Assembly (NCBI GenBank): GCA_023248545.1
Contig: JAHFEF010000002.1
Span: 14,908-78,907 of the forward strand
Direction of reading: 5' to 3'
Length of the DNA: 64,000 nt
DNA from: Myxococcales bacterium
GTDB lineage: Bacteria > Myxococcota > UBA727 > JABDBI01
The position numbers and the translations under genes were made by a program. Below, piece by piece: positions 3,118-51,725 of this stretch (within the stretch, counting starts at the first letter, position 1; every line of letters starts with the position of its first letter). The notes under the pieces are model-generated. The model saw only the letters and a program-made list of their open reading frames with translations, was not told where the DNA came from and made no database searches.

Positions 3118-3179
3118 CTCCCCAATATAGCTCGAACAGTGTCCCGCGCCAATATCTAGCTGTGCTGATATTAAATATT

Positions 3180-4304
3180 ATGACAAACGCCTATATTGCC
3201 GCCACTGGAATTGCTGTTCCGCCTGCTGTTCCCACGGAAAGATTTTTAGAAATCGATCAAAAATACCGAGCCAGACATGGCCAGAGCCGTGAAGTGCGGG
3301 ACATGATCAGGCAATTTGTTGAAAATGCACAAATCAAACAGCGGCATAGTGTCTGTTCTGGTTGGTTCCTGCCAGGAACTAATTCAGAGGGCTATGAAGA
3401 CATATTTACAGAGTATGACTACGATCCACCAGCGTACTTAAGGGCACGATATTGGCATGAGCAAGCTCCTAAAATGGCGATTCAAGCGGCTCAAAATATG
3501 CTGGCTCATTGGTCTGGGAGTGTGGCTGATATTACACATGTTGTGACGACATCTACTTCAGGTTGGGCTGAGCCAGGGATTGCTGTTGAATTGATTGAAG
3601 CACTCGGTTTGTCAGAAGACACGCGTAAGATCGAAATTAATATCAATGGCTGTTTTTGTGGCGCGAGCTGTCTTAGAACTGCGCGCGATATTATTCGAGG
3701 AGGCGAAGCTAAAAATGTCTTAGTGGTTGCAACAGAGCTTGCTTCTATACAGTATAATATGCTCGAAACTGATGTCTCACAGTTGATATCGAGCTCTTTG
3801 TTTGCCGACGGTGCGGCAGCAGCAATCGTCTCGGCTGAAAATTCAAAGGGGGCGTGGGCTTTTGATAAAGCTGGCATGTCATTGGTGCCAGGCAGCAAGC
3901 ACATGCTCAAATTAAACCCGGATTTTGAAAAAGAAGCGACGGCTGTTAAGATGTTTCTACACCAGGGTGTTTCTAAAGCACTGGCTGGCTATTTTCAGTC
4001 AGGACGAGGTCGTGGCTTGTTGGATGATATTCTAAAAGACGCGCCCAGTTACCCAGCATTGGCAGTTCACCCCGGTGGGCCGAATATCTTAGACGGCATG
4101 AATGGTGTTTTGTTAGAACGCGGTTGGCCAAAAAATTGCTTAGACGCGTCGTATGCGACGCTGCATGAAACAGGTAATTTGGGCTCAGCAGCCGTATTAT
4201 TTGTTTTAGATCGCTTGATGCGCGAGACAGAAAATAGGAAAATGGCCTATTTTGCGTTTGGTCCCGGCGTCACAGTGGAGTGGGGAAGTTTGAGCAGCGT
4301 TTGA
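3180..4304 (+). CDS. Type III polyketide synthase (chalcone/stilbene synthase family)
   Basis: All three catalytic-triad contexts are present: Cys in NGCFCGASCLRTA, His in AVHPGGPNILDG, Asn in HETGNLGSAAVLFVLD. The ORF-track start at 3162 is a GTG; the first ATG is at 3180 (MTNAYIAATGIAVP). The gene is divergent from tal-pgi. Confidence 0.85.
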   Translation: MTNAYIAATGIAVPPAVPTERFLEIDQKYRARHGQSREVRDMIRQFVENAQIKQRHSVCSGWFLPGTNSEGYEDIFTEYDYDPPAYLRARYWHEQAPKMAIQAAQNMLAHWSGSVADITHVVTTSTSGWAEPGIAVELIEALGLSEDTRKIEININGCFCGASCLRTARDIIRGGEAKNVLVVATELASIQYNMLETDVSQLISSSLFADGAAAAIVSAENSKGAWAFDKAGMSLVPGSKHMLKLNPDFEKEATAVKMFLHQGVSKALAGYFQSGRGRGLLDDILKDAPSYPALAVHPGGPNILDGMNGVLLERGWPKNCLDASYATLHETGNLGSAAVLFVLDRLMRETENRKMAYFAFGPGVTVEWGSLSSV

Positions 4305-4320
4305 TGATTAAAGAGAGGAT

Positions 4321-7300
4321 ATGAAACTCTCTGCTGATCATATATTGGCCCCCCTGTTTGAACTGGCTCAATCTGACCCGAATCGGGTGGTTTTTACGTT
4401 TGTAGATGATCAGGGCCAAGATGTTGAAGTCAGAACAGCATCACAGATGGCTGACCGTGCTCAAAGTTTGGCATATTATTTGCTCGACGGTTGTGGGCTC
4501 AAGCCAGGCGATGCGGTGCTATTGGTGTATCCGCCTAGTCTTGAGTTCATCGACGCATTTGCGGCCTGTATGTTGGCAGGATTGGTGGCTGCCCCGGTCT
4601 ATCCCCCAAATTTGGCACGACCTGAAAGTGATCTTGCCAGACTGGAGTTGGTGGCCAAGGCTTCAAACGCCAAGGCTATGTTGACGAACCGAGCCTATCG
4701 CTGGGGCGTTCGGTTAAGCTTCAAAGGCCGATGGCCTTCTCTTCCTTGGATTGTCACCCACCTGCGCCAAGGTTTTGATGGGCAAGCGAAGGGGGAAATT
4801 GAAAATCCAATAGCGCTTCTCCAATTTACTTCAGGCTCGACGTCAACTCCAAAAGGCGTTCGCATCACACATGCCAATTTGAGGCACCAGCTTTCACTCT
4901 ATCGAGAACAAGTTTCTGTCGACGAAAGCATTCGTGGCGTCATGTGGGTGCCGCAGTACCATGATTTAGGTCTTATCTGTGGAATTACGGCGGGTTTACA
5001 TGCCCAAGGGTCCTACTGGATCCTCTCGCCGTTTTCTTTTTTAAAAAAGCCAGCCGTCTGGTTTGACGTAATTAATAGAGTTCGAGCCACACACACAGCG
5101 TCGCCCAATTTTGGTTTCGAGTTGGTCACGCGCAAGACAACGCTCAAACAACGAGCCTCGTGGGACTTAAGTTGTCTCAGGCTGATATTGAGTGCCGCCG
5201 AGCCAATTGTTCCCCGTACAATGGATGCTTTTTTTAAAGCCTTCGAAGTATCGAAATTATCTCCTCAAGCTTTTTATCCGGGTTATGGTTTGGCAGAGCA
5301 TGCTGTAGGTGTGACGTTTGGCGGGCAGCAGCGCTTTAAGTTGAATCGTCAAAAGATGTTAGAAAACCAACAGGTTGTTTTTGATGACAACGGTCTAGAA
5401 ATTACCGGTTGTGGTAAGCCTTATGGGGATATTAAAGTCCGCATTGTCTCATCCGAGGGCAAACAGGCATTGCCCGAGGATCAAATCGGCGAGATTTGGG
5501 TGCAGTCTGCCAGTGTCGCCGACGGTTACGAAGGCAATCCAGAAGCCACACAAGAAGTATTCAAAAACGTATTGAGCAACGAGCCCGGGTTTTGGCTGAA
5601 AACAGGCGATTTAGGTTTTCTGCACGGGGGCGAATTATTTATCACGGGTCGCCAGAAAGACCTGGTGATTATTCGAGGCCGCAATATTCACCCTGAAGAT
5701 ATTGAAGAATCTCTACGCTATGCACATCCAGCGATTCGACCCGGCGGCTTAGCGGCGTTTGCAGTGATGGGCGAAGCCACTGAAGAACTAGCAGTTTTAA
5801 TCGAAATCGACGACGCGAAGCACGATCAAGCACCTGAAGCACTTCAGGCAGCTAAACACAAATTAGGTGAAACTTGGGGCTTGCAGGCTCGACTGATTGC
5901 TGTGCCAACCAAGACCGTCAAAAAAACAACGAGTGGCAAAATCCAACGCTCGGCCAACCAAAAAGCGTTTTTAGCAAACCAGATCAAAGAACTCGGTATT
6001 TTAGAGCCACAGGAGCAGGCTAGGCCAATTAATTTCGACGAGCCCTTGTTTGAGCAAATATCAGAAATACCCGTCGAAGAACGTGTTGATTGGTTGATAG
6101 CCGGTATGCAAGCGATTGTTTTAGGCAAGCTATCGAATGAGGTGACACAGGTTGGCCCGGATGATTTTTTGCCGAACACAGGATTAGATTCTCTGGCCAG
6201 CGCCGAGTTATTACAGCTTTTAGAAGAAAAAACAGGCCAAACACTGCCCAGCACCTTGTTTATCGAATATCCCACATTGCGCAAAGCAGCGATGCGCGTG
6301 TTGAGCATTATCGGAGTCGAACACACTGGAGAATTGGCAGTTCCTGATCTTGAACAGCCATTGGTCTATCGACCACCGATTCGCTCCATGCTTCCTGGGA
6401 AAACGCGGATTGGGATCGTGGGTGGCGGCGTCGCTGGGTTGGTGTCTGCCTATGAATTGGCAAAGCTTGGCTACAAGCAAATCACGTTGTTCGAATCCGA
6501 AGCCAACTGTGGCGGCAAAGTTTTGACGGAATATCGTGATCAGGAAGCCATCGAGTTGGGGCAGAATTTTTTTGTGGACTCATTTTCGACGGTGATTGGC
6601 CTGGCCAATGAATTGGAATTGCCATTAAATCCTGCCGACAATACATTCCAACAGTGGACGCCGGATGTTGGTTACGAAGAGGGCCCCGCCCGAAAGCCGT
6701 CGCGCATTTGGATGCGTAACCTTGCCAAGGCTGGGCGTGTTGAATTAAATCCTCGATTGGGTTTGCCCGTGTTGCTGGAGGGTCGCGAAGAGCCATTTTC
6801 AAGTTTCATCAAGCGTCATCATTTAAGTGTCCACCCGATGTTCTATTTTGATTGGAATGCCATGGGGTATGGCTTTGATCTCGAAATGCCGGCTTGTTAT
6901 GTTCTCGCTTATCTTCAACACGTAGGAAGCAGCAGCAACGTTTGTTATTTGCCGAACGGAAATCAACAACTTTGGACAACATTGGCTGAGCGTTTGGAAA
7001 AAACTTGGGGTGTTCAAATTCGACGTGGCCACAAGGTGAGCAGCATTCATCCGACTGAAACGGGTGTTTTGATCGACCAGGAGCATTATGACGAGGTAAT
7101 TTCGGCGGTTCCGCCGGATTTATTGGCCTCATTGCTGCCCCAAGAAGATCCGCTGCAACCCCTATTGGAGCAGTTTGAATACATGGGTTATTCGATTCAT
7201 GCCATCAAAGCGAAGGGTTTATTTGAAAAGGGTGCTGTATTGTTTCCGGAATGGGCGAAGCAACAGGGACCACTGGTAACGATGCAAGCATGTGTTAAGC

Positions 7301-7626
7301 GGCAAGGTTGGTATCTCATGGGTCAATTCGCTTCGGGGCATTCCAAGCAGTTGGATAATATGCCGGAGTCTGATTTGCGTGGCGAGATACAGCATGGCAT
7401 AACGCTGATGGGCGGTCATATCACCGAATGGGGGCCTCATAGAACTTGGAAGTACTTCCCGCATGTTCGAAAAAATCCTGTGTCTGTTTTGCAACAAGCA
7501 GAGAGATTGCAGGGTTCAAGACACGTGTGGACGACGGGGTCTTGGATGGCGTTCGAGACAACCGAACACACAGCCAGACATGCAGGGCATTTGGTTCGAA
7601 CGTGTTTTGACCCGGCTGATTTTTAA
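4321..7626 (+). CDS. Tri-domain protein: fatty acyl-AMP ligase (FAAL), acyl carrier domain, and FAD-dependent amine-oxidase/desaturase-like oxidoreductase
   Basis: Residues ~1-560 carry adenylation motifs (QFTSGSTSTPKGVRITHANL, YGLAEH, GDLGF, GRQKDLVIIRGRN) and a FAAL-type insertion. The phosphopantetheine site GLDSLAS has its Ser codon at 6190-6192. The C-terminal ~400 aa starts with the Rossmann motif IGIVGGGVAGLVSAYELAKLG...ESEANCGGK, typical of the amine-oxidase / protoporphyrinogen-oxidase / CrtI superfamily. An SD (agagagga) lies 8 nt before the ATG, 16 nt after the PKS stop. Confidence 0.8.
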   Translation: MKLSADHILAPLFELAQSDPNRVVFTFVDDQGQDVEVRTASQMADRAQSLAYYLLDGCGLKPGDAVLLVYPPSLEFIDAFAACMLAGLVAAPVYPPNLARPESDLARLELVAKASNAKAMLTNRAYRWGVRLSFKGRWPSLPWIVTHLRQGFDGQAKGEIENPIALLQFTSGSTSTPKGVRITHANLRHQLSLYREQVSVDESIRGVMWVPQYHDLGLICGITAGLHAQGSYWILSPFSFLKKPAVWFDVINRVRATHTASPNFGFELVTRKTTLKQRASWDLSCLRLILSAAEPIVPRTMDAFFKAFEVSKLSPQAFYPGYGLAEHAVGVTFGGQQRFKLNRQKMLENQQVVFDDNGLEITGCGKPYGDIKVRIVSSEGKQALPEDQIGEIWVQSASVADGYEGNPEATQEVFKNVLSNEPGFWLKTGDLGFLHGGELFITGRQKDLVIIRGRNIHPEDIEESLRYAHPAIRPGGLAAFAVMGEATEELAVLIEIDDAKHDQAPEALQAAKHKLGETWGLQARLIAVPTKTVKKTTSGKIQRSANQKAFLANQIKELGILEPQEQARPINFDEPLFEQISEIPVEERVDWLIAGMQAIVLGKLSNEVTQVGPDDFLPNTGLDSLASAELLQLLEEKTGQTLPSTLFIEYPTLRKAAMRVLSIIGVEHTGELAVPDLEQPLVYRPPIRSMLPGKTRIGIVGGGVAGLVSAYELAKLGYKQITLFESEANCGGKVLTEYRDQEAIELGQNFFVDSFSTVIGLANELELPLNPADNTFQQWTPDVGYEEGPARKPSRIWMRNLAKAGRVELNPRLGLPVLLEGREEPFSSFIKRHHLSVHPMFYFDWNAMGYGFDLEMPACYVLAYLQHVGSSSNVCYLPNGNQQLWTTLAERLEKTWGVQIRRGHKVSSIHPTETGVLIDQEHYDEVISAVPPDLLASLLPQEDPLQPLLEQFEYMGYSIHAIKAKGLFEKGAVLFPEWAKQQGPLVTMQACVKRQGWYLMGQFASGHSKQLDNMPESDLRGEIQHGITLMGGHITEWGPHRTWKYFPHVRKNPVSVLQQAERLQGSRHVWTTGSWMAFETTEHTARHAGHLVRTCFDPADF

Positions 7627-8789: not shown

Positions 8790-10850
8790 CTAAAATAGGG
8801 AAGAATTGGCCAGTTCTCTAGCCGGCTCAATCAAGTCAGCATGCTTAACCAAATCACAGTGATGAAAGATTGGCAGCCCCGATTGACGGGTGCCCAAGAA
8901 ATCACCCGGGCCTCGAATTTTCAAATCTTCAGCCGCAATTTCAAAACCATTTTGGCTCTTCTCCATAATACTCAAACGCCTGTAAGTTTCTTCGCTGGGG
9001 AAAAGCTGGTCGGTGAGTAAATAGCAAGCGCTTTTTTTGCTGCCTCGACCTACTCGGCCTCTGAGCTGGTGCAGCTGAGATAATCCAAAACGCTCTGGAT
9101 GGACAATAATCATGCAGGTTGCATTGGGTACGTCGACGCCGACTTCAATCACAGTCGTTGAAACCAATATTTGGGCTTGACCCGAAGAAAACCGCTGCAT
9201 GGTCGCGTCTTTTTCTGCCGCCGGCATGCGCCCATGAATCAGACCGACGGTCAAAGATCCAAAACGTGCTTCCAATTGGGCAAACGCCTGTTGGGCATCC
9301 AGCAAATCTATTTTTTCGGATTCTTCAACCAATGGGTAAATAATATAGGCCTGATCTTGGTTGCGCAGGCATTTTTCTGCCAACATCATGACGTTCAAGG
9401 TCGGGTCACCTTGCAAAATATGCGTTGAAATCGGGGTTCGGCCAGGAGGCAACTCGTCCAAGACAGAGAGCGCAAAATCACCATAGGCTGTCAGCGCTAA
9501 GCTTCTAGGAATCGGAGTCGCTGTCATGGCCAACACATGTGGCACTTCAAGGCCGCGTTTGCCCTTATTGCGCAGCTCTGTGCGCTGGTTTACGCCAAAA
9601 CGGTGTTGCTCATCGATAATACATAGGCCGAGTTTGTGAAATTCGACGTCGTCCGAGATCAACGCATGCGTGCCCAAAATTATTTTAATTTCGCCGGATT
9701 GTAGCCGTGCCAATACATCACGGCGTTCTTTGGTGCCTAAGCTGCCTTGGAGCCGGCCCACTAATTGGCTTCCAAATAATTTCACAAATAGTTGATAATG
9801 CTGCTCTGCTAAGATCTCCGTTGGGGCCATCAAAGCTGTTTGATAACCCGCTTCGCTCAGATGACAAGCAACCGAGGCAGCTACTGCAGTTTTACCCGCA
9901 CCGACGTCGCCTTGCAGGAGCCTTAGCATGGGGTAAGGCTTGTTTAAATCGCCAATAATTTCGTTGATGACTCGAACTTGTGCTTGTGTTGGCGTAAACG
10001 GCAGTATTTTTTTAAATAACGCATCCGCAGGTATTCTAGGGGCTACCGGAGCTTGGGATTGCTGTTGAGTCTTGCGGTGCTTCTGGAGACGCAATTGGAG
10101 CTGATAGAGTTCTTCGAAAGCCATGCGTCTAAATGCCGGGTGTTTGTCTAAGTCTGTGATGACGTCGTCAGGCCGATGAATCGCTTCGTAGCTCTCTAAT
10201 AAAGGCAGCAAATTAAGCTGCTGAAGTATCTCTGTTGGAAATGGCTCTTGGGGGGCGCTTTTATGAATATGGCTGAGCGCCGACTCGATGCCCTTGCTTA
10301 AGTCGGCCGGGCCTAAATTTTTAAGCTCGGTGTAAATCGGCCAAACGCCGTGAAAATCAGCAGATTTATCACCCAGAGCTACTTTGGGGTGCGCCATTTG
10401 CAACATGGCATTAAAGGACGTGACCAATCCCATCACCGTAATTTGTGTCTGAGGGGGTAGATTCATCAGATAGCTCACAGGCCTCAGCTGAAAAAATACG
10501 AGCTTCAAATAGCCAGAGCCATCTTTGAACATGATTTCAAGACGTTGGCTTTTAGGGGGCCCAACGGTTTGTAAACGCATGATCGTCCCAACGACCAAGC
10601 CGTTCATACCAGGCTTTAACTCTGAAATAGGACGCTTTTCTCGAAGTTGATACGCTCTGGGCAAAATCCCCAGCAGGTCTTTGATGGTGTGAACGCCTAA
10701 GCTTTTAAAAGCTTTTTCGCGCGCAGGTCCGATGCCTGTTAACTTGCCAATCGGGTCTTCATAGGGATTGCTCACGGGGCCAGCCAAAACCGAAATGCGA
10801 TGACCACCATGATGGCCAGTGTCACCAAGCCAACAGCCACGGGGATCCAA
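8790..10850 (-). CDS. recG: ATP-dependent DNA helicase RecG
   Basis: 686 aa. Wedge and helix-hairpin-helix N-terminus (LTGIGPAREKAFKSLG), Walker A GDVGAGKT, DEQH box, helicase motifs QLRGRVGRG. Confidence 0.9.
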   Translation of the reverse strand: MDPRGCWLGDTGHHGGHRISVLAGPVSNPYEDPIGKLTGIGPAREKAFKSLGVHTIKDLLGILPRAYQLREKRPISELKPGMNGLVVGTIMRLQTVGPPKSQRLEIMFKDGSGYLKLVFFQLRPVSYLMNLPPQTQITVMGLVTSFNAMLQMAHPKVALGDKSADFHGVWPIYTELKNLGPADLSKGIESALSHIHKSAPQEPFPTEILQQLNLLPLLESYEAIHRPDDVITDLDKHPAFRRMAFEELYQLQLRLQKHRKTQQQSQAPVAPRIPADALFKKILPFTPTQAQVRVINEIIGDLNKPYPMLRLLQGDVGAGKTAVAASVACHLSEAGYQTALMAPTEILAEQHYQLFVKLFGSQLVGRLQGSLGTKERRDVLARLQSGEIKIILGTHALISDDVEFHKLGLCIIDEQHRFGVNQRTELRNKGKRGLEVPHVLAMTATPIPRSLALTAYGDFALSVLDELPPGRTPISTHILQGDPTLNVMMLAEKCLRNQDQAYIIYPLVEESEKIDLLDAQQAFAQLEARFGSLTVGLIHGRMPAAEKDATMQRFSSGQAQILVSTTVIEVGVDVPNATCMIIVHPERFGLSQLHQLRGRVGRGSKKSACYLLTDQLFPSEETYRRLSIMEKSQNGFEIAAEDLKIRGPGDFLGTRQSGLPIFHHCDLVKHADLIEPARELANSSLF

Positions 10851-27537: not shown

Positions 27538-27792
27538 ATGCAAAATATGAAATCCTGTCGCTGTCCACATCACTCAATGACCGCAATTTTTCTGGTTCTT
27601 CTGGCCCTTACGATCTTTCTAGGTAATGCCGGGGTGATCGCTGAACATACAGCCAGTATGATCTGGCCTGTATTCTTGGGGCTGATTGGTCTTCAAAAAG
27701 TCTTTGGGCGCCGTTGCAAGTGCTGCGCGGGTGAAGGCTGCCAATGTGGTTGCTGTACAGGCAGTGAATCTCAGTCTGGCAAATGCTGCTGA
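27538..27792 (+). CDS. Small membrane protein with Cys-rich C-terminus (possible metal-binding)
   Basis: 84 aa, two TM helices, then RRCKCCAGEGCQCGCCTGSESQSGKCC. Lies 4 nt after pssA. Confidence 0.45.
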   Translation: MQNMKSCRCPHHSMTAIFLVLLALTIFLGNAGVIAEHTASMIWPVFLGLIGLQKVFGRRCKCCAGEGCQCGCCTGSESQSGKCC

Positions 27793-28628
27793 TGTCTCAG
27801 TTTATTGCGTTTGAACGCAATAAATGGTCTCAGTGCATAGTACAGAAAAAATAAGCCATCTGGCAAAGCCAAAGCCTGAAAGTCTTGAAGTCTTGGGACA
27901 AAGAGGCTGAACAGGACTTTGGCTTTGTTTTTAAATTTTTTGCGCAGAGCTAATTTGTGCCACCAATCCGACCATCGCCAAACGTAGGAACCCGTACGAC
28001 CCGTCTTTATTTGTAGCCCTTCTCTTAATGTCCCAGCTAAATCCCACTGATCAGCTTCTTTCCTAATCAAATTCCAATCAAGCTCATATTTTGCTAATAA
28101 TTTTTGAATATCGAGTGCCCATTGGGGTCTCGACCAACCCGACTCACAGCCATGCGTGCATAAATAAAGCAAATTATATTCTGGGCTCAGATGTTTAATC
28201 TGAACACCTAAAAGCTCAGTGGTCTGCAAACTAATATCAAACACAGAAAAGCACTCCCAGTCTTGAAACAGGCGCCAGTGCAGCTCTAAACAAATTTGTT
28301 TTTTGGGGTGCCAATAAACAAAATCTTTGCTCCAGTGAATATGTGCTTGAAGTTGCCGAGGTGTTAAGAACGACCGTTGATAGCCTTGTTGTTGCAGAAT
28401 ATGATCGGCCTCGAAAATATTTTTAGGCTTTATGACCAGGTCAATATCTTTTGATTTCCGAGCACCCAAATCGCCATAGAGCTCGAGTGCTAACAGAGGA
28501 CCCTTAATAGCAACAGACTCTATTTTTGCGTGCGCCAACAGTGAAACTATAGAAACCAGTTCAGCGCATTGGCCTAGTGCCTGCTTAGGATTGAAGTAAC
28601 CCAATATCGCCGCCGCTGCTAATAGCAT
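27771..28628 (-). CDS. Pol-beta-superfamily nucleotidyltransferase of the 'uncharacterised nucleotidyltransferase' type that accompanies PqqD-family proteins
   Basis: 285 aa. IKGPLLALELYGDLGARKSKDIDLVIKPKN matches the hG[GS]...DhD NTase motif. The true start is uncertain: the annotated ATG lies 76 nt inside the upstream small ORF. Confidence 0.7.
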   Translation of the reverse strand: MLLAAAAILGYFNPKQALGQCAELVSIVSLLAHAKIESVAIKGPLLALELYGDLGARKSKDIDLVIKPKNIFEADHILQQQGYQRSFLTPRQLQAHIHWSKDFVYWHPKKQICLELHWRLFQDWECFSVFDISLQTTELLGVQIKHLSPEYNLLYLCTHGCESGWSRPQWALDIQKLLAKYELDWNLIRKEADQWDLAGTLREGLQIKTGRTGSYVWRWSDWWHKLALRKKFKNKAKVLFSLFVPRLQDFQALALPDGLFFLYYALRPFIAFKRNKLRHQQHLPD

Positions 28629-28704
28629 TTTCGGTGTCTAAATTGACATCGGCAATCTGAGTGATCTCAGGTTTTGTCCAGATCTTTTTCGCTTCCTCAG
28701 CCAT
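28585..28704 (-). CDS. Candidate RiPP-like precursor peptide, 39 aa, with a PqqA-like leader. It is not in the ORF track.
   Basis: Hand translation of the minus strand gives ATG(28704-28702) MAEEAKKIWTKPEITQIADVNLDTENAISSGGDIGLLQS then TAA(28587-28585). The ATG is 10 nt after the stop of the PqqD-family gene. Confidence 0.4.
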   Translation of the reverse strand: MAEEAKKIWTKPEITQIADVNLDTENAISSGGDIGLLQS

Positions 28705-28714
28705 GTCTGGCAGT

Positions 28715-29005
28715 CTAGCTCAGAGGCTGGACAACTTGCAACAAATTCTGAGTCAATAACTGATTCAGAAATTCTAAAACTTCCTGCTCACACTGTTTTT
28801 TCGAGACTTCGAACTCTCGTCCGAGCTTGTCGCATAGCTGAGTGATCTCTGTGGGTTGCTCCAGGAGCTCCCAAATTCTTCGACCAACCGAGTTGACACC
28901 GTAATACTTGCCAGTTTGTATGCTGAGCATGACCAAGTCTTCGTCTAAGCAGCTGCTGATCAGATTTTTATTTCTCGCCACGGTGTCATTGAGTTGAAGC
29001 TTCAT
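28715..29005 (-). CDS. PqqD-family protein (RiPP recognition element / peptide chaperone)
   Basis: 96 aa. LVMLSIQTGKYYGVNSVGRRIWELLEQPTEITQLCDKL...EVLEFLNQLLTQNLL matches the PqqD winged-helix consensus (yy.LN..g..IW.ll.g..t..ei...l). Confidence 0.8.
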   Translation of the reverse strand: MKLQLNDTVARNKNLISSCLDEDLVMLSIQTGKYYGVNSVGRRIWELLEQPTEITQLCDKLGREFEVSKKQCEQEVLEFLNQLLTQNLLQVVQPLS

Positions 29006-29012
29006 GGTTTAT

Positions 29013-30827
29013 TTATAGGCGGCAAACCCGTTTTAAGCGACAGTCTGAACAAGAAGTTTGAATATCGGCCGGTACATGGCCCTGTAACACCGGTTCTAAC
29101 AAAGCTTGCAACGCTTGATCTAACTCGGGCAAGCGATCGGTCATGTCGATCAAGGGTCCTGGGGCGCCGTCTCGAATAGATATGGGGTAGCCAAGAAGTT
29201 GTTTGTGTGACCCTAACGCTCTCAAATAAATAGGTATCTGAAAATGCGTTTTCAAGATTTCTTTCGAAGCAAAGCGCATTCGAAGAGCACTCAAGGCGGA
29301 TAATTTATAATCAACGACGATTTGAGCCTCTGGGTTTGTATCAACTCGATCGATCACGCCGCCAATGTGAATTTTGTCCGTGCCGACCAAAAGCTCAAAC
29401 GACTCTGGTCGGTGTTCAAAAAATACGGGCTTAGCGTTCGCAATGGGCGGATTTTTTTCCAAATTAGATACCAGTCGCCGAAGCGCTTCACGAAGCCAAA
29501 GCAGATTGGCTCGCCATACACCTGGATGCGTGTCTTTGGGATCTGCCTGTGCAAGCGTGAGCTGAATCTCTTGGCCATCACGATAATATTTTTCGAGTGC
29601 CTCGTGTGCCACCTGACCCAGGACACGCATATCGATGTCGTGTCTTGCCGGGGGACTCAGATCGATTTTCAACAGCTTTTCAACAAATGCCCGAAAGCGA
29701 CACTGCGCAAAAGCTTCTATTCGGGTGGCGCTCAGTGGCTTTTCCGGATTTAAACCCAATAGATCGCCAAATTGTTTTCGAAAACGAATGGGATCCAACC
29801 TCACCCCTAACCCCTCTCCACCCAGTGGAGAGGGGAATTTTTGGGAACGTTTAGCAGCCTGAAAAACTTGCTCCAGCTTATTAAGCGGTCTGTTTAACTG
29901 AGTAATTCCCTCGTTTTCGCTGAGCCAATCAAGTTTCGCTAATTCGCTCATGGTCTGCGCCTGACCACTTTGATCCAACGCCGAGCTGGTCAAAACTAAA
30001 AACTTGGCCGCGCTACAAGCCCCCAAAAACCACATGGGCTCAAGTGCTTGCTTGGCTGGGAACAAACTGGGTTCTAGCAGGTCTTCTTCGAAGCGCCGTA
30101 AAACTTGATGACCCATGAGACAATTAATCTCAAAGCAGTCAGAATCTCGCAGTGGCCAATCTGGTTCGCGTGAAAGTGTCAGACGCCCATGTGCACAGTC
30201 GGCAATCACCACCCCATCCAATTGCTTGCCCAGCAAATCGGGTAGCGCCAAAACTGGCGTGTCCAACTCATGTGCACGCAGGGCATCTCGAAATATCAAT
30301 GCTCTTTTATCCAGCACACGCATTGCGACGGCAATATTTTTATCCCGACCGTAGCCAGCCACAACTTGGGCCACAAAACGTGCTTCTTGCACCAAGTCCG
30401 GCGCTTCATAACGCACCAGGCGCTCTGGTTTTACGAACGGCTTAAAGATAATTTCCAAGTTTTTTAAGTCATGATGCTGTTCGATTCGATGGGCCAAATA
30501 GGTAATGGGCAAACTCAATCCGTGGCCTGATGAATCTACTGGAAACTCAAAACGAATTTTGACACCCAACTCCGCCAGTCTAAACAAATAGGCCAGTTCG
30601 AGTTCGCTCAAATCTACCCGATTTGAAATCACCAGGTGATCAAAGTCAGGCTTTTGGGTGAGTGCCTGATAGGATCGTAAAAAATCTAAACTTTGATCCG
30701 GCTGGTGCTCAAGCGCTTGGAGCGGGGTTAGAATTTCACGCAAACGGGGCGAAAGCCCCGGCTTGGCCAATATTTCGCTCGGAGAACTTAAGCCATGAAT
30801 CAGCGCCCGAAAGAGTTTTAGCGTCAC
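29013..30827 (-). CDS. PD-(D/E)XK nuclease-family protein with an AddB/Cas4-type iron-sulfur nuclease domain and no helicase motifs
   Basis: 604 aa. The C-terminal ~230 aa carry SATRIEAFAQCRFRAFVEKLL (compare SxSxLExxxxCPxxyF), GGVIDRVD, IVVDYKLS (E/DxK) and a terminal CSDCRLKRVC (C-x2-C-x5-C). This is the 4-Cys 'iron staple' of AddB-type nucleases. The stop is 7 nt before the pqqD-like ATG. Confidence 0.65.
   Translation of the reverse strand: MTLKLFRALIHGLSSPSEILAKPGLSPRLREILTPLQALEHQPDQSLDFLRSYQALTQKPDFDHLVISNRVDLSELELAYLFRLAELGVKIRFEFPVDSSGHGLSLPITYLAHRIEQHHDLKNLEIIFKPFVKPERLVRYEAPDLVQEARFVAQVVAGYGRDKNIAVAMRVLDKRALIFRDALRAHELDTPVLALPDLLGKQLDGVVIADCAHGRLTLSREPDWPLRDSDCFEINCLMGHQVLRRFEEDLLEPSLFPAKQALEPMWFLGACSAAKFLVLTSSALDQSGQAQTMSELAKLDWLSENEGITQLNRPLNKLEQVFQAAKRSQKFPSPLGGEGLGVRLDPIRFRKQFGDLLGLNPEKPLSATRIEAFAQCRFRAFVEKLLKIDLSPPARHDIDMRVLGQVAHEALEKYYRDGQEIQLTLAQADPKDTHPGVWRANLLWLREALRRLVSNLEKNPPIANAKPVFFEHRPESFELLVGTDKIHIGGVIDRVDTNPEAQIVVDYKLSALSALRMRFASKEILKTHFQIPIYLRALGSHKQLLGYPISIRDGAPGPLIDMTDRLPELDQALQALLEPVLQGHVPADIQTSCSDCRLKRVCRL
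29797..29836 (-). repeat. Palindromic element, copy A (about 40 bp; 10-11 bp stem CCCCTCTCCAC/GTGGAGAGGGG), inserted in-frame in the nuclease-like CDS
   Basis: Plus strand: aacctcacccctaacccctctccacccagtggagagggga. Its reverse complement is ~85-90% identical to copy B at 51482-51520. In the nuclease-like protein it encodes FPSPLGGEGLGVRLD. Confidence 0.6.
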
Positions 30828-31558
30828 TTCTTCTTTTTCTTAAGCTGTTCTCTGGCCTTGAGAGCAAAAGAACTCTTGGGATGCTTTTTGATAACTTCTT
30901 CGTAAAAAACCGAAGCATCTTTTGGAAATTTAAGTGCTTCTAAAGATACGCCGACTTTATAGAGTGCCTCTGGGACCTTACTGAAACCCTGAAAACGTGT
31001 CAGCAAGTCTTGGTAGGATAGGACGGCTTTTTTATACTCGCCGAGCTCATAATAAGAATCCCCACGCCAAAATAATATTTGAGCCGTGAATTGCTTGTCA
31101 TCTGCAAACTTGCTTAAAAACGTTTCGCTGCCAGCAATTGCGCGCTCATATTGCTTGTCTTCATAGGCTGTCTTGATCGCAGCAACTTGATCCGTCTTGT
31201 TGAGATTTTTGGGCGCCGCAGCAGGTTCTTCGGTAGCGGGCGCTGGGACAGGTTCTACAGGCTTCGCGGTTTGAATTTCTTGGAGCTGGGTTTTGAGCTG
31301 CTCGACTTCGGTGAGAAGCTTCTCTTTTTCGAGGTTCGTATCAGCACTCTGTTTAAATACAGCGCCTTCTAGTTTTTGGAGGCGGTTCTCGGACAACAAT
31401 TGCCGATCACCCACGTCGCGTTGGGTATCAGCAAGCTGTGATCTGAGCTTGCTGATATCCATTTGCATTTGATCGCCCTCGGCGCGGGGCACAAAGCAGG
31501 CAGTGAGGCTACTCGATAGTAATATCAGTACGCCTGTTTTTAGCCCAAGCTTGTTCAT
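30824..31558 (-). CDS. ybgF: Tol-Pal system protein YbgF/CpoB (coiled coil + TPR lipoprotein)
   Basis: Start placed at MNKLGLKTGVLILLSSSLTAC (lipobox). The ORF-track start at 31669 would overlap pal by 160 nt. Long coiled coil followed by TPR-like C-terminus (YYELGEYKKAVLSYQDLL). Its stop overlaps the start of the nuclease-like gene (ATGA). Confidence 0.65.
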   Translation of the reverse strand: MNKLGLKTGVLILLSSSLTACFVPRAEGDQMQMDISKLRSQLADTQRDVGDRQLLSENRLQKLEGAVFKQSADTNLEKEKLLTEVEQLKTQLQEIQTAKPVEPVPAPATEEPAAAPKNLNKTDQVAAIKTAYEDKQYERAIAGSETFLSKFADDKQFTAQILFWRGDSYYELGEYKKAVLSYQDLLTRFQGFSKVPEALYKVGVSLEALKFPKDASVFYEEVIKKHPKSSFALKAREQLKKKKK

Positions 31559-32084
31559 TGTGTTCAGGGTCAACGGGTTTTTCTTTTCCATAAGAGACAA
31601 CATGCATCCTAGAATCACTAATTCCAGAGTTTTGCAAGTATTGTGACACAGCCTTGGCTCGTTTTTCACCTAAAGCCAGATTATATTCTACCGTTCCGCG
31701 TTCATCCGTGTTGCCGGCAACCATAATTTGGGTGTTCGCATTGGTACGCAAGCAGGCAGCCATATCCGTCAGCAAGTCTCGATCGCCCGCTTTGATATCA
31801 TACATATTGAAATCAAAATGGACAGTTCCAGTTTGGCTACAGGCTGAACCAGCTTGAACTGGTGTTGACTTCTCTGTTTGCGAAGCCTGAGAGCTTTCAG
31901 CACAACGATTATCTGTGCAGATTTTGCCCTCCTTACAGTCTTTGTTGGTGCCGCACTCCTGGCACTTGCCAAATACGCAAACAGCGTCTTCGCAATCACC
32001 ATCTTTTTTGCATGTCACGTCTTTTGAAGAGTGACACGCAGTTAATAACATGAGGGTTACCACCCCAATTGATCCGATTTTCAT
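31509..32084 (-). CDS. pal: Peptidoglycan-associated lipoprotein Pal (OmpA-like) with a Cys-rich N-terminal module
   Basis: 191 aa. Lipobox LLTAC; OmpA-like C-domain (VHFDFNMYDI...IMVAGNTDERGT.EYNLALGEKRAKAV...NRR). Eleven Cys sit between the lipobox and the OmpA domain. Confidence 0.8.
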   Translation of the reverse strand: MKIGSIGVVTLMLLTACHSSKDVTCKKDGDCEDAVCVFGKCQECGTNKDCKEGKICTDNRCAESSQASQTEKSTPVQAGSACSQTGTVHFDFNMYDIKAGDRDLLTDMAACLRTNANTQIMVAGNTDERGTVEYNLALGEKRAKAVSQYLQNSGISDSRMHVVSYGKEKPVDPEHNEQAWAKNRRTDITIE

Positions 32085-32096
32085 TTTTTTCTCCTT

Positions 32097-33011
32097 CTAA
32101 ATTAGAACCGGCAAACACCGACTCAAGATTTCAAATTTCGCTGGCAACTCCCCTGCGTCTTCACCATCCGCTTCAATATAAACAGGTTCTTTTGACAAAG
32201 ATTCCACCAAAGCCACACGACCTCGCATTTTATAAACCTGCGGCAAATCCAAATGCTTTCCACGATAAACGCTCATGCCGTGCCTCAAAAAAAAGCCCAG
32301 GCCCATTTTCGAAACAGCGATCTTATCAAAACGACCGTCGTCGAACCTCGCTCCAGGAGCGATCTGCATGCCCCCACCAAAATACTGTCCATTGGCGAAA
32401 GCCAACAGCGAACAATCTGGGTGTAATATATTCTTGCCATCTAAATTAGCGCGAATTTGTGTGGGCTTGTAAGACCAAATGGCTTTGACGGTTTGTAAAT
32501 AATACGACCAGGAGGCTCGCGTGCGCCTTTCTTGCTCACGCATGTTCTTGGCGATCACCGCAGAGATGCCACAGCTCGCGACGTTTAAAAAATAGCGTTT
32601 TTGTGTTTTAGAAACCACCAGTCCCAAATCTATGTGTTTGACCTGAGAATTCAGCAATCTGCGCACTTGGCCTTTGTTGTCTTCGGGCCAACCAAAGCTC
32701 TTGGCTGTGTCATTGCCAGAGCCACTGGGCAGAATCCCCAGAGGCGTTTTCGAGTTTTCCCCCAACGCATTCACGACTTCGTTGAGTGTGCCATCGCCAC
32801 CCATCACCAATATAACAGATGCACCCTGGGATACTTGGTCTCGGGTAATTTGAGTGGCATGGCCAATATGCTCGGTCTTTAAAACCCGTAGGTTTGGCCA
32901 ATTCGCTTCTAATTCAGGCAAAATTGCATTAAGACTAGCCATAGCCTTGCCCTGATTGGAGTGCGGATTGACAATCAAGCTGGCGTTTTTGAAAAGATTA
33001 TTGACAGACAC
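32097..33011 (-). CDS. Diacylglycerol-kinase-family lipid kinase (YegS/DagK catalytic domain)
   Basis: 304 aa: VILVMGGDGTLNEVVNAL, GILPSGSGND. Confidence 0.8.
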   Translation of the reverse strand: MSVNNLFKNASLIVNPHSNQGKAMASLNAILPELEANWPNLRVLKTEHIGHATQITRDQVSQGASVILVMGGDGTLNEVVNALGENSKTPLGILPSGSGNDTAKSFGWPEDNKGQVRRLLNSQVKHIDLGLVVSKTQKRYFLNVASCGISAVIAKNMREQERRTRASWSYYLQTVKAIWSYKPTQIRANLDGKNILHPDCSLLAFANGQYFGGGMQIAPGARFDDGRFDKIAVSKMGLGFFLRHGMSVYRGKHLDLPQVYKMRGRVALVESLSKEPVYIEADGEDAGELPAKFEILSRCLPVLI

Positions 33012-51128: not shown

Positions 51129-51725
51129 TTGATTCTCATCCTGGCGTTATTAAAACCGCTGGGTCATGATATCGCTTTTATCGTGGCTTTTGTGTATCAG
51201 CTGTATGTTCCATTATGGCTAGGCTACACAGTTCGATTACAACCGGATGCTTTGAAAGCGGATTTAATTCGAGTCGCCTGGATTTCTGTCGTGACGTTCT
51301 CTGGCTACGCTTTTGCTTATTATTGGTTTCAGCATTTTTGGGCGGCGCATCAGGGCTATCAAGTTTACTTTCATCCGGTGTTTTCTTGGAGTTTGCTTTG
51401 GGGCTTTGTGGTCAATCTGGCTATTATCGCCTTTCCTGAAGAAGTATTTTATCGAGGCTATCTCCAGAGCCGCCTTTTAAGTCCCTCTCCACAGGGTGGA
51501 GAGGGATTTAGGGTGAGGTTTGTGATTCTGTTTGTTAGCTTTCTCTTTGCCCTGGGCCACTTTGTGGGCGAGTACGACCCAGTTCGCCTGCTCCCCTTCT
51601 TTCCTGGTTTAGTTTTCTCGTGGCTTGTTTATCGCTCGGGCTCTATCGCAGGCGCGACACTTTATCATGCCCTTTGCAATAGTTTCTCGGAGTGGTTAGC
51701 GTCCAGTTATCACTGGAGCCACTGA
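51129..51725 (+). CDS. CPBP-family intramembrane metalloprotease (CAAX protease/Abi)
   Basis: 198 aa. EEVFYRGYL (motif 1), FALGH (motif 2), HALCN (motif 3). TTG start as called in the track. Contains the in-frame palindromic element (SPSPQGGEGFRVR). Confidence 0.7.
   Translation: MILILALLKPLGHDIAFIVAFVYQLYVPLWLGYTVRLQPDALKADLIRVAWISVVTFSGYAFAYYWFQHFWAAHQGYQVYFHPVFSWSLLWGFVVNLAIIAFPEEVFYRGYLQSRLLSPSPQGGEGFRVRFVILFVSFLFALGHFVGEYDPVRLLPFFPGLVFSWLVYRSGSIAGATLYHALCNSFSEWLASSYHWSH
51482..51520 (+). repeat. Palindromic element, copy B, inserted in-frame in the CPBP protease CDS
   Basis: tccctctccacagggtggagagggatttagggtgaggtt: stem CCCTCTCCAC/GTGGAGAGGG, 3 nt loop, then tail TTTAGGGTGAGGTT. Encodes SPSPQGGEGFRVR between CPBP motifs 1 and 2. 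Confidence 0.6.

Follow-up and report, generated by a model that had tools for sequence, protein, structure and literature searches.

A strongly reduced AddB orthologue behind pal-cpoB and its candidate nuclease-less AddA partner

The 604-aa protein described here, encoded within a window of 64,000 nucleotides (the whole stretch of DNA that was analysed), is an orthologue of AddB, the AddAB subunit that is not the motor, in strongly reduced form. In its lineage the gene has left the addB-addA operon and now follows pal-cpoB. Five related genomes that encode the short AddB also encode, at a separate locus, an AddA that has no nuclease domain, and this co-occurrence suggests a minimal one-motor, one-nuclease machine for the resection of DNA ends.

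Nuclease, scaffold and relation to full-length AddB

The features of the gene and its product, in window coordinates, are as follows.

29013..30827, minus strand: open reading frame of the short AddB ("mini-AddB"), 604 aa; the GTG start overlaps the cpoB stop (GTGA)
29019..29735, minus strand: C-terminal RecB-family PD-(D/E)XK nuclease domain, aa 365-603
29700..29702, minus strand: Cys376, the first putative iron-staple cysteine (FAQC), invariant in 15 homologues; codon checked
29304..29351, minus strand: catalytic motifs from D493 (GGVIDRVD) to D506-Y507-K508, invariant columns; codons checked
29022..29051, minus strand: C593-x2-C596-x5-C602, the C-terminal putative iron-staple cysteines; codons checked
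29793..30827, minus strand: first ~345 aa, an AddB-type scaffold that resembles an SF1 helicase, reduced in size and dead as an ATPase (Foldseek, colinearity, PF13361 in a relative)
29797..29835, no strand assigned: ~40-nt palindromic repeat, in frame within a linker of low conservation; its translation is FPSPLGGEGLGVR, and homologues lack it

A protein identical over its whole length (100%) is present in public collections (P0001). The first-pass annotation of this DNA had placed the start at an ATG overlapping the ybgF stop as ATGA; the actual start is GTG with a GTGA overlap, and the homologues share the same start site. The reading frame itself and the motifs quoted for it are real: SATRIEAFAQC occupies aa 366-376, IGGVIDRVD aa 488-496 and DYK aa 506-508, and the C-x2-C-x5-C is located as well. 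The call of an AddB/Cas4-type Fe-S PD-(D/E)XK nuclease also holds, as a Pfam scan places PF12705 (PDDEXK_1) on aa 365-603 with E=2.6e-26 and 93.5 bits (cutoff 22), far beyond chance. Among 15 homologues D493, D506, Y507, K508, Q530 and Y534 are all invariant, C593 and C602 likewise, and C596 is kept in at least 90%; the nuclease reading withstands this check on the four cysteines and the catalytic residues. The protein therefore has the AddB features of a RecB-family PD-(D/E)XK nuclease with D...D-x-K and QxxxY, and AddB's cysteine pattern, one upstream and CxxCx5C downstream, which predicts an Fe-S site. Judged by these residues, the nuclease should be a catalytically intact member of the RecB family, clamped by a four-cysteine iron staple. 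No match to the Walker A pattern ([AG]x4GK[ST]) occurs along the entire 604-aa protein, which bears out the earlier remark that Walker motifs were missing.

The N-terminal ~345 aa are not an unrelated extension of the nuclease domain, as the first reading would have had it; Foldseek and colinearity identify them as a reduced AddB-type helicase-like scaffold. Foldseek matches the 604-aa protein to AdnA (2.3e-12), AddB chain B (5.9e-12) and PcrA/UvrD (5e-4), and the alignments to the first two, its top matches, span 845-1048 columns. In a relative of intermediate length (P0015, 923 aa), PF13361 (UvrD_C) falls on the segment equivalent to the scaffold. Four blocks of the scaffold are conserved (LVISNRVDLSELELAYLF, EAPDLVQEARFVAQ, VVIADCAHGRL and QALEPMWFLGA), and the short forms are on average 68-73% identical to one another in the scaffold vs 59% in the nuclease; measured on these alignments, the scaffold is under constraint and is more conserved than the nuclease. 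Because sequence searches of the PDB, with the single protein and with the family profile, returned chance matches only (Ktr, HopAB; E>0.2), the tie to solved AddB structures rests on the fold comparison. Alignment of the short-AddB family with three AddAs by hhalign paired the nuclease domains alone, at 43% probability, and leaves the scaffold uninformed. The palindromic repeat in the linker has a second copy in the window, at about 51466-51510, within another open reading frame, and the homologues P0010 and P0011 also carry in-frame repeat insertions.

How much of AddB is left? The short-AddB profile (positions 2-604) aligns end to end with proteins of 950-1080 aa, from their residue ~75-100 to the C-terminus. 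Compared with these relatives, the short form has lost ~74 N-terminal residues, including an already degenerate P-loop position, together with an internal stretch of ~200 residues and several shorter ones of ~20; Walker A is also missing from the long relatives themselves. The 604-aa protein falls short of the full AddB domain set (1A, 1B, 2A, 2B) and of the ~950-1170 aa length. The long AddB-like genes lie directly upstream of genes for 1040-1170-aa UvrD+PDDEXK AddA proteins at four loci (L004, L011, L012, L014), and by this placement the long relatives are true AddB. At two further loci (L027, L028) a full-length AddA is preceded by a gene cut by the contig end, and in L028 that gene has PF12705. 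With the AddB models of NCBIfam the scores stay far short of the cutoffs (TIGR02786, addB_alphas, 15.8 bits vs 486.5), since the short-AddB subfamily is too divergent for them; no AddB, Cas4 or UvrD-type model of NCBIfam reaches cutoff for the short AddB or for the ~735-aa helicase described below. The short form is found in two 50%-identity clusters only, among 1.84 billion representatives, and its reading frame is intact across 13 clusters at 51-79% identity. The literature that was searched describes no nuclease-less AddA and no AddB of ~600 aa, which is not proof of novelty.

A candidate AddA partner and a proposed mechanism

The first-pass annotation saw no addA- or recB-like partner gene nearby, and within the 64-kb window this is confirmed: Pfam scans of the large open reading frames and tblastn with full-length AddA find no UvrD/AddA/RecB-like gene, tblastn with two short AddA-like helicases gives no match, and RecG (8790-10850) is the sole helicase among the frames scanned. 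Likewise, no helicase is found within 10 kb of any short-form locus, and addB-addA adjacency is seen at none of them over that distance. The stand-alone nuclease of the annotation is nevertheless probably not partnerless, as a helicase derived from AddA is encoded elsewhere in related genomes. An AddA profile search finds helicases of ~735 aa with E-values from 1e-152 to 1e-124, ranked above many full AddAs. They are colinear with AddA, retain AGAGTGKT, DEYQDTSPIQE, VGDPKQSIYGFRGAD and LLYVALTRAK, have every helicase motif and end where the AddA nuclease domain would begin. The reciprocal search from a ~735-aa helicase returns 11 short forms first, then mainly AddAs of 1040-1275 aa, most of them with PF12705, along with a few entries of 536-940 aa that have no PF12705 match; no protein annotated UvrD, PcrA or Rep is among them. 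AddA-like proteins of 850-900 aa also occur. None of the UvrD/PcrA/Rep equivalog cutoffs is reached by the ~735-aa helicases, and PADLOC reports for them a generic similarity to GajB/DRT, much weaker than that to AddA.

The short AddB and the ~735-aa AddA co-occur, at separate loci, in five related assemblies (GCA_040384225.1, GCA_016000045.1, GCA_015999675.1, GCA_016764955.1 and the MAG ELA443, JBAXMC, in which the two are linked by nearby protein accession numbers only). In GCA_040384225.1 both genes lie on one contig of 929,517 bp, not linked but separated by about 290 kb. The short AddB is coupled in translation to cpoB upstream of it, and the helicase to a DMT_YdcZ gene; neither upstream gene is related to the one it precedes. 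When four genomes are compared in pairs, the two proteins show closely matching identities (52/51, 62/63, 61/60, 55/54, 51/52 and 59/61 %).

AddAB moves 3'->5' by a single motor, that of AddA, and has a separate nuclease for each of the two strands; its cleavage of the 3' strand is attenuated by Chi, its binding to DNA ends requires the Fe-S cluster, and in B. subtilis Chi contacts mainly AddB domain 1A and the AddA nuclease interface (PMC3064778, PMC4614115). As the best reading of the data we infer, with a probability of roughly 0.6, an unlinked reduced AddAB that would unwind DNA ends and cut the 5' strand only, free of Chi control. The short AddB and the nuclease-less AddA would still heterodimerise, and the Fe-S nuclease domain of the former may help to hold the broken duplex end. 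The AddA motor would move 3'->5' on the 3'-ended strand and unwind the duplex, while the short AddB nuclease, by extrapolation from B. subtilis AddAB, would digest the 5'-ended strand; by the same analogy Chi control would have been lost. Since no nuclease would remain for the 3' strand, a 3' tail for RecA would be made from the start. Chi recognition would then be dispensable, and this would explain the joint loss of part of AddB and of the AddA nuclease.

Gene neighbourhood and alternative readings

The genes around the short AddB in the window are as follows.

32097..33011, minus strand: lipid kinase gene of the DAGK/YegS type; precedes pal and shares its conserved block
31509..32084, minus strand: pal (peptidoglycan-associated lipoprotein), extended at its N-terminus by a Cys-rich segment; TIGR02802 134.9 bits, above cutoff; conserved synteny
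30824..31669, minus strand: cpoB/ybgF-like TPR lipoprotein gene, directly upstream; longest open reading frame, gene caller start 31468 (214 aa); conserved synteny
28715..29005, minus strand: lasso-type PqqD (B1) gene, 7 nt downstream; NF033536 92.6 bits vs cutoff 80
27771..28628, minus strand: NTP_transf_5 nucleotidyltransferase, a lasso-cluster remnant

The cpoB/ybgF-like protein scores 77.5 bits with TIGR02795, under the cutoff of 90.1. The stop codon of the short AddB lies 7 nt before the PqqD ATG (29005), as the annotation had it, and a scan for promoters and terminators inside the operon gave nothing informative. In the lineage of uncultured MAGs labelled Myxococcota the short addB always follows pal-cpoB and has PqqD/lasso neighbours sometimes. 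The PqqD/lasso cluster is downstream in the window, in L007/L010, in L009 and, distantly, in L001, and is absent from L002/L003, L006 and L008. The annotation had set the protein in an envelope and peptide-chaperone context; the adjacency of PqqD and the nucleotidyltransferase is lineage synteny that relatives often lack. PqqD (B1), adjacent in some relatives and not in all, is probably unrelated in function to the short AddB, and the same probably applies to the NTP_transf_5 gene.

Does the fixed position behind pal-cpoB mean that the nuclease works by itself? It could be an autonomous Fe-S nuclease, like Cas4, Exo5 or the Dna2 nuclease, independent of AddA and recruited to the Pal-CpoB operon for a role in envelope constriction or division, for example on septal DNA. 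The DAGK-pal-cpoB-addB synteny with its stop/start overlap is strict at every short-form locus, it recurs in a 796-aa intermediate (P0014) of 43% identity, and the 10-kb surroundings of all these loci are free of helicases. However, the homology to operon-encoded AddB covers the whole protein, beyond the nuclease, and a helicase-like scaffold would be useless to a nuclease acting alone, although no part of the protein is better conserved. A derivative of AddA is found alongside it and has diverged at an equal rate. In addition, the short AddB has neither signal peptide nor membrane segment, whereas Pal and CpoB are periplasmic, which points to shared transcription and not to shared function. 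In other bacteria the genes that follow tol-pal operons are commonly unrelated housekeeping genes, which also speaks against recruitment. The analysis gave no support for a stand-alone role, and we consider an autonomous one unlikely. Very unlikely, in our view, is that the pal-cpoB-addB coupling is functional in itself, such that a minimal nuclease for DNA ends, alone or together with the nuclease-less AddA, would be co-expressed with the constriction machinery and process DNA in step with division, AddB being repurposed and not merely relocated.

That the gene is a functionless, decaying AddB remnant heading for loss is highly improbable. Large deletions relative to full-length AddB, the lost operon linkage and the in-frame repeat insertions of the window copy and of P0010/P0011 are what decay might leave behind, but the frame is intact in 13 clusters, the catalytic and cysteine residues are invariant, the scaffold keeps its 68-73% identity among short forms and the insertions are confined to poorly conserved loops. 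A pseudogene is rejected because of this conservation of nuclease residues and scaffold.

We give hardly any credence to an accessory or immunity role of the nuclease in the neighbouring PqqD/lasso-peptide/nucleotidyltransferase cluster: in the window, L007/L010 and L009, PqqD begins 2-20 nt downstream of the nuclease, and L007 has the full B1-B2-cyclase-NTase set, but the cluster is missing downstream in L002/L003, L008 (a 78% identical protein) and L006, three genes intervene in L001, and the window cluster is itself decayed, having neither B2 protease nor cyclase. The lasso B1/B2/C genes do not co-occur consistently with the short AddB across the loci compared, we know of no role of a RecB-type nuclease in RiPP pathways, and the reading is rejected because the adjacency is inconsistent.

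The annotation had also raised a defence system, and an anti-phage component built on a helicase-less Cas4/RecB-type nuclease is just as hard to credit: the Cas4 models match the nuclease domain weakly (PADLOC E=5e-5; NCBIfam cas4 19.5 bits), but these matches are domain-level only and far under the 65-bit cutoff, the neighbourhood has no defence, cas or mobile-element genes, GC content equals that of the surroundings, and the locus is fixed in a core-genome block of relatives at 43-79% protein identity, unlike defence islands. PADLOC yields nothing for the nuclease beyond weak Cas4 domain matches (E>=5e-5) and nothing for its neighbours; the defence option is thus unsupported, and we reject it.

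Significance and comparison with known systems

If the short AddB and the nuclease-less AddA are indeed paired, they would constitute a natural minimal AddAB of one motor and one nuclease, from which most of the Chi-scanning part of AddB and the Chi-regulated nuclease are gone. Such a pair would be a natural experiment on the irreducible core of bacterial end-resection enzymes and on whether Chi control is expendable, and a bacterial counterpart of the helicase-plus-5'-nuclease resection carried out by Sgs1/BLM with Dna2. With 604 aa of AddB and 735 aa of AddA it would also offer a compact structural target. If the pairing is false, it would have to be explained why a nuclease that has no partner and a fixed place behind pal-cpoB keeps so strongly conserved a helicase-like scaffold. 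The two kinds of protein, so far labelled only "UvrD-helicase domain-containing protein" and "PD-(D/E)XK nuclease family protein", can now be linked.

AddB combines a C-terminal RecB-family nuclease and its iron staple with a motor-less N-terminal SF1-helicase-like fold (PMC2887965, PMC4614115). The references for it were B. subtilis AddB (PDB 3U4Q/4CEH chain B) and B. fragilis AddB (~957 aa); the AddAB of B. fragilis has been used in complementation of the UV sensitivity of E. coli delta-recBCD. The short AddB shares the VDYK nuclease, the C...CxxCx5C staple and the motor-less SF1-helicase-like N-terminus, and is homologous over its whole length to the AddB-like proteins encoded upstream of addA; it differs in its length, 604 aa vs ~950-1170, and in following pal-cpoB instead of lying beside addA. 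Likewise, the ~735-aa helicases keep all motifs of the AddA/RecB type and match the helicase part of AddA colinearly, whereas they have no C-terminal nuclease domain and their genes lie downstream of a DMT_YdcZ gene, a long way from addB. AdnA, from the mycobacterial two-motor, two-nuclease AdnAB, is the best structural match and joins a helicase-like N-terminus to an Fe-S RecB nuclease; unlike the short AddB it has SF1 motor motifs and measures ~1045 aa. In RecBCD, RecC is a dead helicase scaffold, as is the N-terminus of the short AddB, but has no active nuclease. A one-motor, one-nuclease form is known for neither AdnAB nor RecBCD. Eukaryotic Dna2, which acts with Sgs1/BLM, has an SF1B helicase of its own, requires RPA and is not orthologous to the short AddB. 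The short AddB does not belong to Cas4, as TIGR00372 gives 19.5 bits vs a cutoff of 65 and no cas genes are among its neighbours. Cas4, Exo5 and ACE1 have the same nuclease fold and four-cysteine arrangement; they are, however, single-domain proteins of ~200-280 aa, whereas the short AddB adds to this fold a conserved helicase-like scaffold of 345 aa.

The short AddB gene and its neighbours

Pfam places a PD-(D/E)XK nuclease domain (PF12705, E=2.6e-26) on residues 365-603 of the 604-aa protein, here called short AddB, in agreement with the first-pass annotation, which had read its C-terminus as an AddB/Cas4-type nuclease; the motifs quoted there are all found in the translated ORF.

Features of short AddB and its surroundings
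29013-30827, minus strand: short AddB ORF, 604 aa
aa 366-376: SATRIEAFAQC motif
aa 488-496: IGGVIDRVD motif
aa 506-508: DYK motif
C593-x2-C596-x5-C602: C-terminal cysteines
Upstream: pal and the gene of a CpoB/YbgF-like TPR lipoprotein
Downstream: genes of a lasso-type PqqD and an NTP_transf_5 nucleotidyltransferase

The cysteine pattern is the one published for the AddB Fe-S cluster in B. subtilis and B. fragilis, with one cysteine upstream and CxxCx5C downstream, around VDYK (PMC2887965). A word-based search for relatives found only 16, every one of them in a MAG labelled Myxococcota or Deltaproteobacteria, and in the family alignment built on them C376, C593 and C602 are invariant, as are D493, D506, Y507, K508, H408, E383, Q530 and Y534, while C596 is kept in at least 90%. 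Given that cysteines and catalytic residues are conserved among homologues, the objection foreseen in the annotation, a lack of such conservation, does not arise. Judged by its sequence, the nuclease domain is intact and conserved. Cas4 identity was ruled out (19.5 bits versus 65), and membership in a known defence system was rejected after a defence-model search.

A block of lipid kinase, pal, cpoB and short AddB, with stop and start codons that overlap or abut, is present in all short-form loci and at that of a 796-aa intermediate. In the window, the start does overlap the cpoB/ybgF-like stop, at GTGA with a GTG start and not at ATGA as annotated, the stop indeed lies 7 nt ahead of the PqqD gene, and the GC content of the gene is that of the flanking DNA. 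In Pal itself (31509-32084, minus) a Cys-rich stretch (CKKDGDCEDAVCVFGKCQECGTNKDCKEGKICTDNRC) extends the N-terminal part between lipobox and OmpA-like domain; it is seen also at L006 (L-numbers are loci of relatives) and, as a faint Dickkopf_N match, at L001. At L002 (1-21824, GCA_016000045.1) seven called genes around short AddB encode Lcl_C-domain proteins, one with a faint PARP match.

PqqD comes after the nuclease at four separate loci, namely the window, L007/L010, L009 and L001 (2.4 kb off). The lasso set is complete in L007 (11722-14934; B1, B2, Asn-synthase-like cyclase, NTase), whose PqqD ORF was overlooked by the gene caller, and lacks the cyclase in L001 (14139-15762, B1-B2-NTase); downstream of short AddB no lasso cluster is present in L002/L003, L008 (78% identical protein) or L006. 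The adjacency of PqqD and NTase is therefore variable lineage synteny. The window cluster (27771-29005, minus), with a lasso-type PqqD (NF033536, above cutoff) and NTP_transf_5, no B2 protease and no cyclase, is a decayed remnant; it holds a 39-aa ORF (28585-28704, MAEEAKKIWTKPEITQIADVNLDTENAISSGGDIGLLQS) with a leader-like KxWxKPE motif. Elsewhere in the window, 27538-27792 (plus) encodes an 84-aa protein, predicted to be a membrane protein, that matches LiaF-TM weakly and ends in a very Cys-rich tail, CKCCAGEGCQCGCCTGSESQSGKCC; at 3162-7626 (plus), a type III polyketide synthase gene and, after it, that of a 1101-aa protein (AMP-binding, PP-binding, amine oxidase) may form a small biosynthetic pair.

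A reduced AddB scaffold

The N-terminal 345 residues are an AddB scaffold of reduced size. The AlphaFold model computed from the family alignment (mean pLDDT 77.6; nuclease domain mostly 84-94) has AdnA as its best Foldseek match (7sjr_A, 2.3e-12), with AddB chain B (4ceh_B, 3u4q_B) at about 1e-11, in alignments covering 845-1048 columns; PcrA and UvrD are likewise matched. In a HMMER run of the family profile across 1.84 billion cluster representatives, which gave 108 matches below 1e-30, profile positions 2-4 to 603-604 align with 950-1080-aa proteins from their residue ~75-100, and only two clusters show the short architecture at full length, P0008 (631 aa) and P0017 (609 aa).

Segments missing from short AddB relative to the long forms
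N-terminus: about 74 residues
After aa 132: 21 residues
After aa 189: about 200 residues
After aa 308: about 20 residues
After aa 432: about 21 residues

Intermediates are P0014 (796 aa) and P0015 (923 aa); in the latter, Pfam UvrD_C matches the segment equivalent to short AddB aa ~140-190. These fold matches and the end-to-end alignment with long AddB-like proteins speak against the N-terminus being an unrelated domain. A motif search found no Walker A in the 604-aa protein, as annotated, and the long relatives have none either, with GRDRAHVR at the B. subtilis AddB P-loop position. Mean pairwise identity among 12 short forms is 68-73% in the scaffold (aa 61-300), above the nuclease (59%) and linker (38%); the scaffold is thus under strong constraint.

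A ~40-nt palindromic repeat (CCTCACCC.TAA..CCCTCTCCACCC.GTGGAGAGGG) lies in frame in two window ORFs, encoding FPSPLGGEGLGVR in the short AddB linker (29797-29835) and SPSPQGGEGFRVR in a membrane-protein ORF (51129-51725; repeat at about 51466-51510), and resembles Rickettsia palindromic elements, which insert in coding sequence. Another repeat-encoded peptide, AKAGIQ..PDS.D.SLRW.D, occurs in two or three in-frame copies in the short forms P0010 and P0011 (L009 10001-12055), near aa 57, in the linker and within the nuclease domain; these copies account for the lengths of 650-692 aa and mark insertion-tolerant loops.

Nuclease-less AddA homologues in related genomes

The whole 64-kb window contains no UvrD/AddA/RecB-like gene, which upholds the annotated lack of a nearby partner, and no helicase gene lies within 10 kb at any short-form locus or at that of the 796-aa intermediate. 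Full-length distant relatives (27-34% identity) stand directly upstream of genes for 1040-1170-aa UvrD+PDDEXK AddAs at L004, L011, L012 and L014, the classical addB-addA operon; at L027 and L028 a full-length AddA is preceded by a gene that the contig end truncates, with PF12705 on the truncated gene in L028. The AddB of L004 (8879-12004) consists of 365-aa and 667-aa ORFs with 24 nt between them, through a frameshift or assembly error or as a genuinely split gene.

By sequence comparison, a candidate partner helicase does exist elsewhere in related genomes. Profile A2, made from three operon-encoded AddAs, retrieves true AddAs and then helicases of ~691-740 aa (P0225-P0232, E 1e-152 to 1e-124), which outrank many full-length AddAs. 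These short AddAs are colinear with AddA, with Walker A (AGAGTGKT), DEYQDTSPIQE, the RecB/AddA-type motif VGDPKQSIYGFRGAD and LLYVALTRAK, and stop exactly at the start of the AddA nuclease domain; their 130-200 bits do not reach the UvrD, PcrA and Rep equivalog cutoffs (>900). The reciprocal search with P0227 yields 11 short forms, then mainly 1040-1275-aa AddAs, most with PF12705, and a few entries of 536-940 aa that PF12705 does not match; none of its best 120 is annotated UvrD, PcrA or Rep. Short AddB and short AddA occur together in five assemblies.

Co-occurrence of short AddA and short AddB
P0227 and P0007: one 929,517-bp contig, about 290 kb apart
P0228: in both assemblies carrying P0009
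P0230 and P0002: one MAG, tied only by close protein accession numbers
P0284: in the assembly carrying P0011

Pairwise identities of short AddB/short AddA across four genomes almost coincide, at 52/51, 62/63, 61/60, 55/54, 51/52 and 59/61%. A 147-aa DMT_YdcZ gene precedes short AddA with a 4-nt overlap in each of five different genomic contexts analysed (among them L021 7561-10214, L023 and L025, and L029 3561-6286), the second case here of a repair gene in fixed coupling with an envelope (membrane-protein) gene.

A putative one-motor, one-nuclease enzyme

Nuclease, iron-staple cysteines and scaffold homology, in sequence and fold, mark short AddB as of AddB ancestry; it falls short of a canonical AddB in domain completeness, operon linkage and curated model cutoffs. 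In the literature searched, neither an AddB of ~600 aa nor an AddA lacking its nuclease is described, and the short AddB variant is so far confined to a small uncultured lineage.

The AddB nuclease reportedly acts on the 5' strand (Yeeles and Dillingham, 2007). The lineage would have shed the AddA nuclease and, from AddB, the N-terminal portion of the helicase-like region and one internal domain, and one motor and one 5'-strand nuclease would remain. We infer that short AddB and short AddA form a heterodimer, that its cutting is strand-specific and that Chi no longer controls it: such an enzyme would make a 3' tail directly and would have no need to scan for Chi. In the AddAB heterodimer, AddA supplies the only motor, which runs 3'->5', and each strand has its own nuclease; DNA-end binding requires the AddB Fe-S cluster, and past Chi the 3' strand is cut less while the 5' strand continues to be degraded (PMC3064778). 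AddB domain 1A does most of the reading of Chi, assisted by 2A and by the nuclease of AddA, and Chi is handed on to the site of that nuclease (PMC4614115). The proposed short AddAB would resemble AddAB after Chi, or the mutant enzymes with a nuclease-dead AddA that have been used in vitro.
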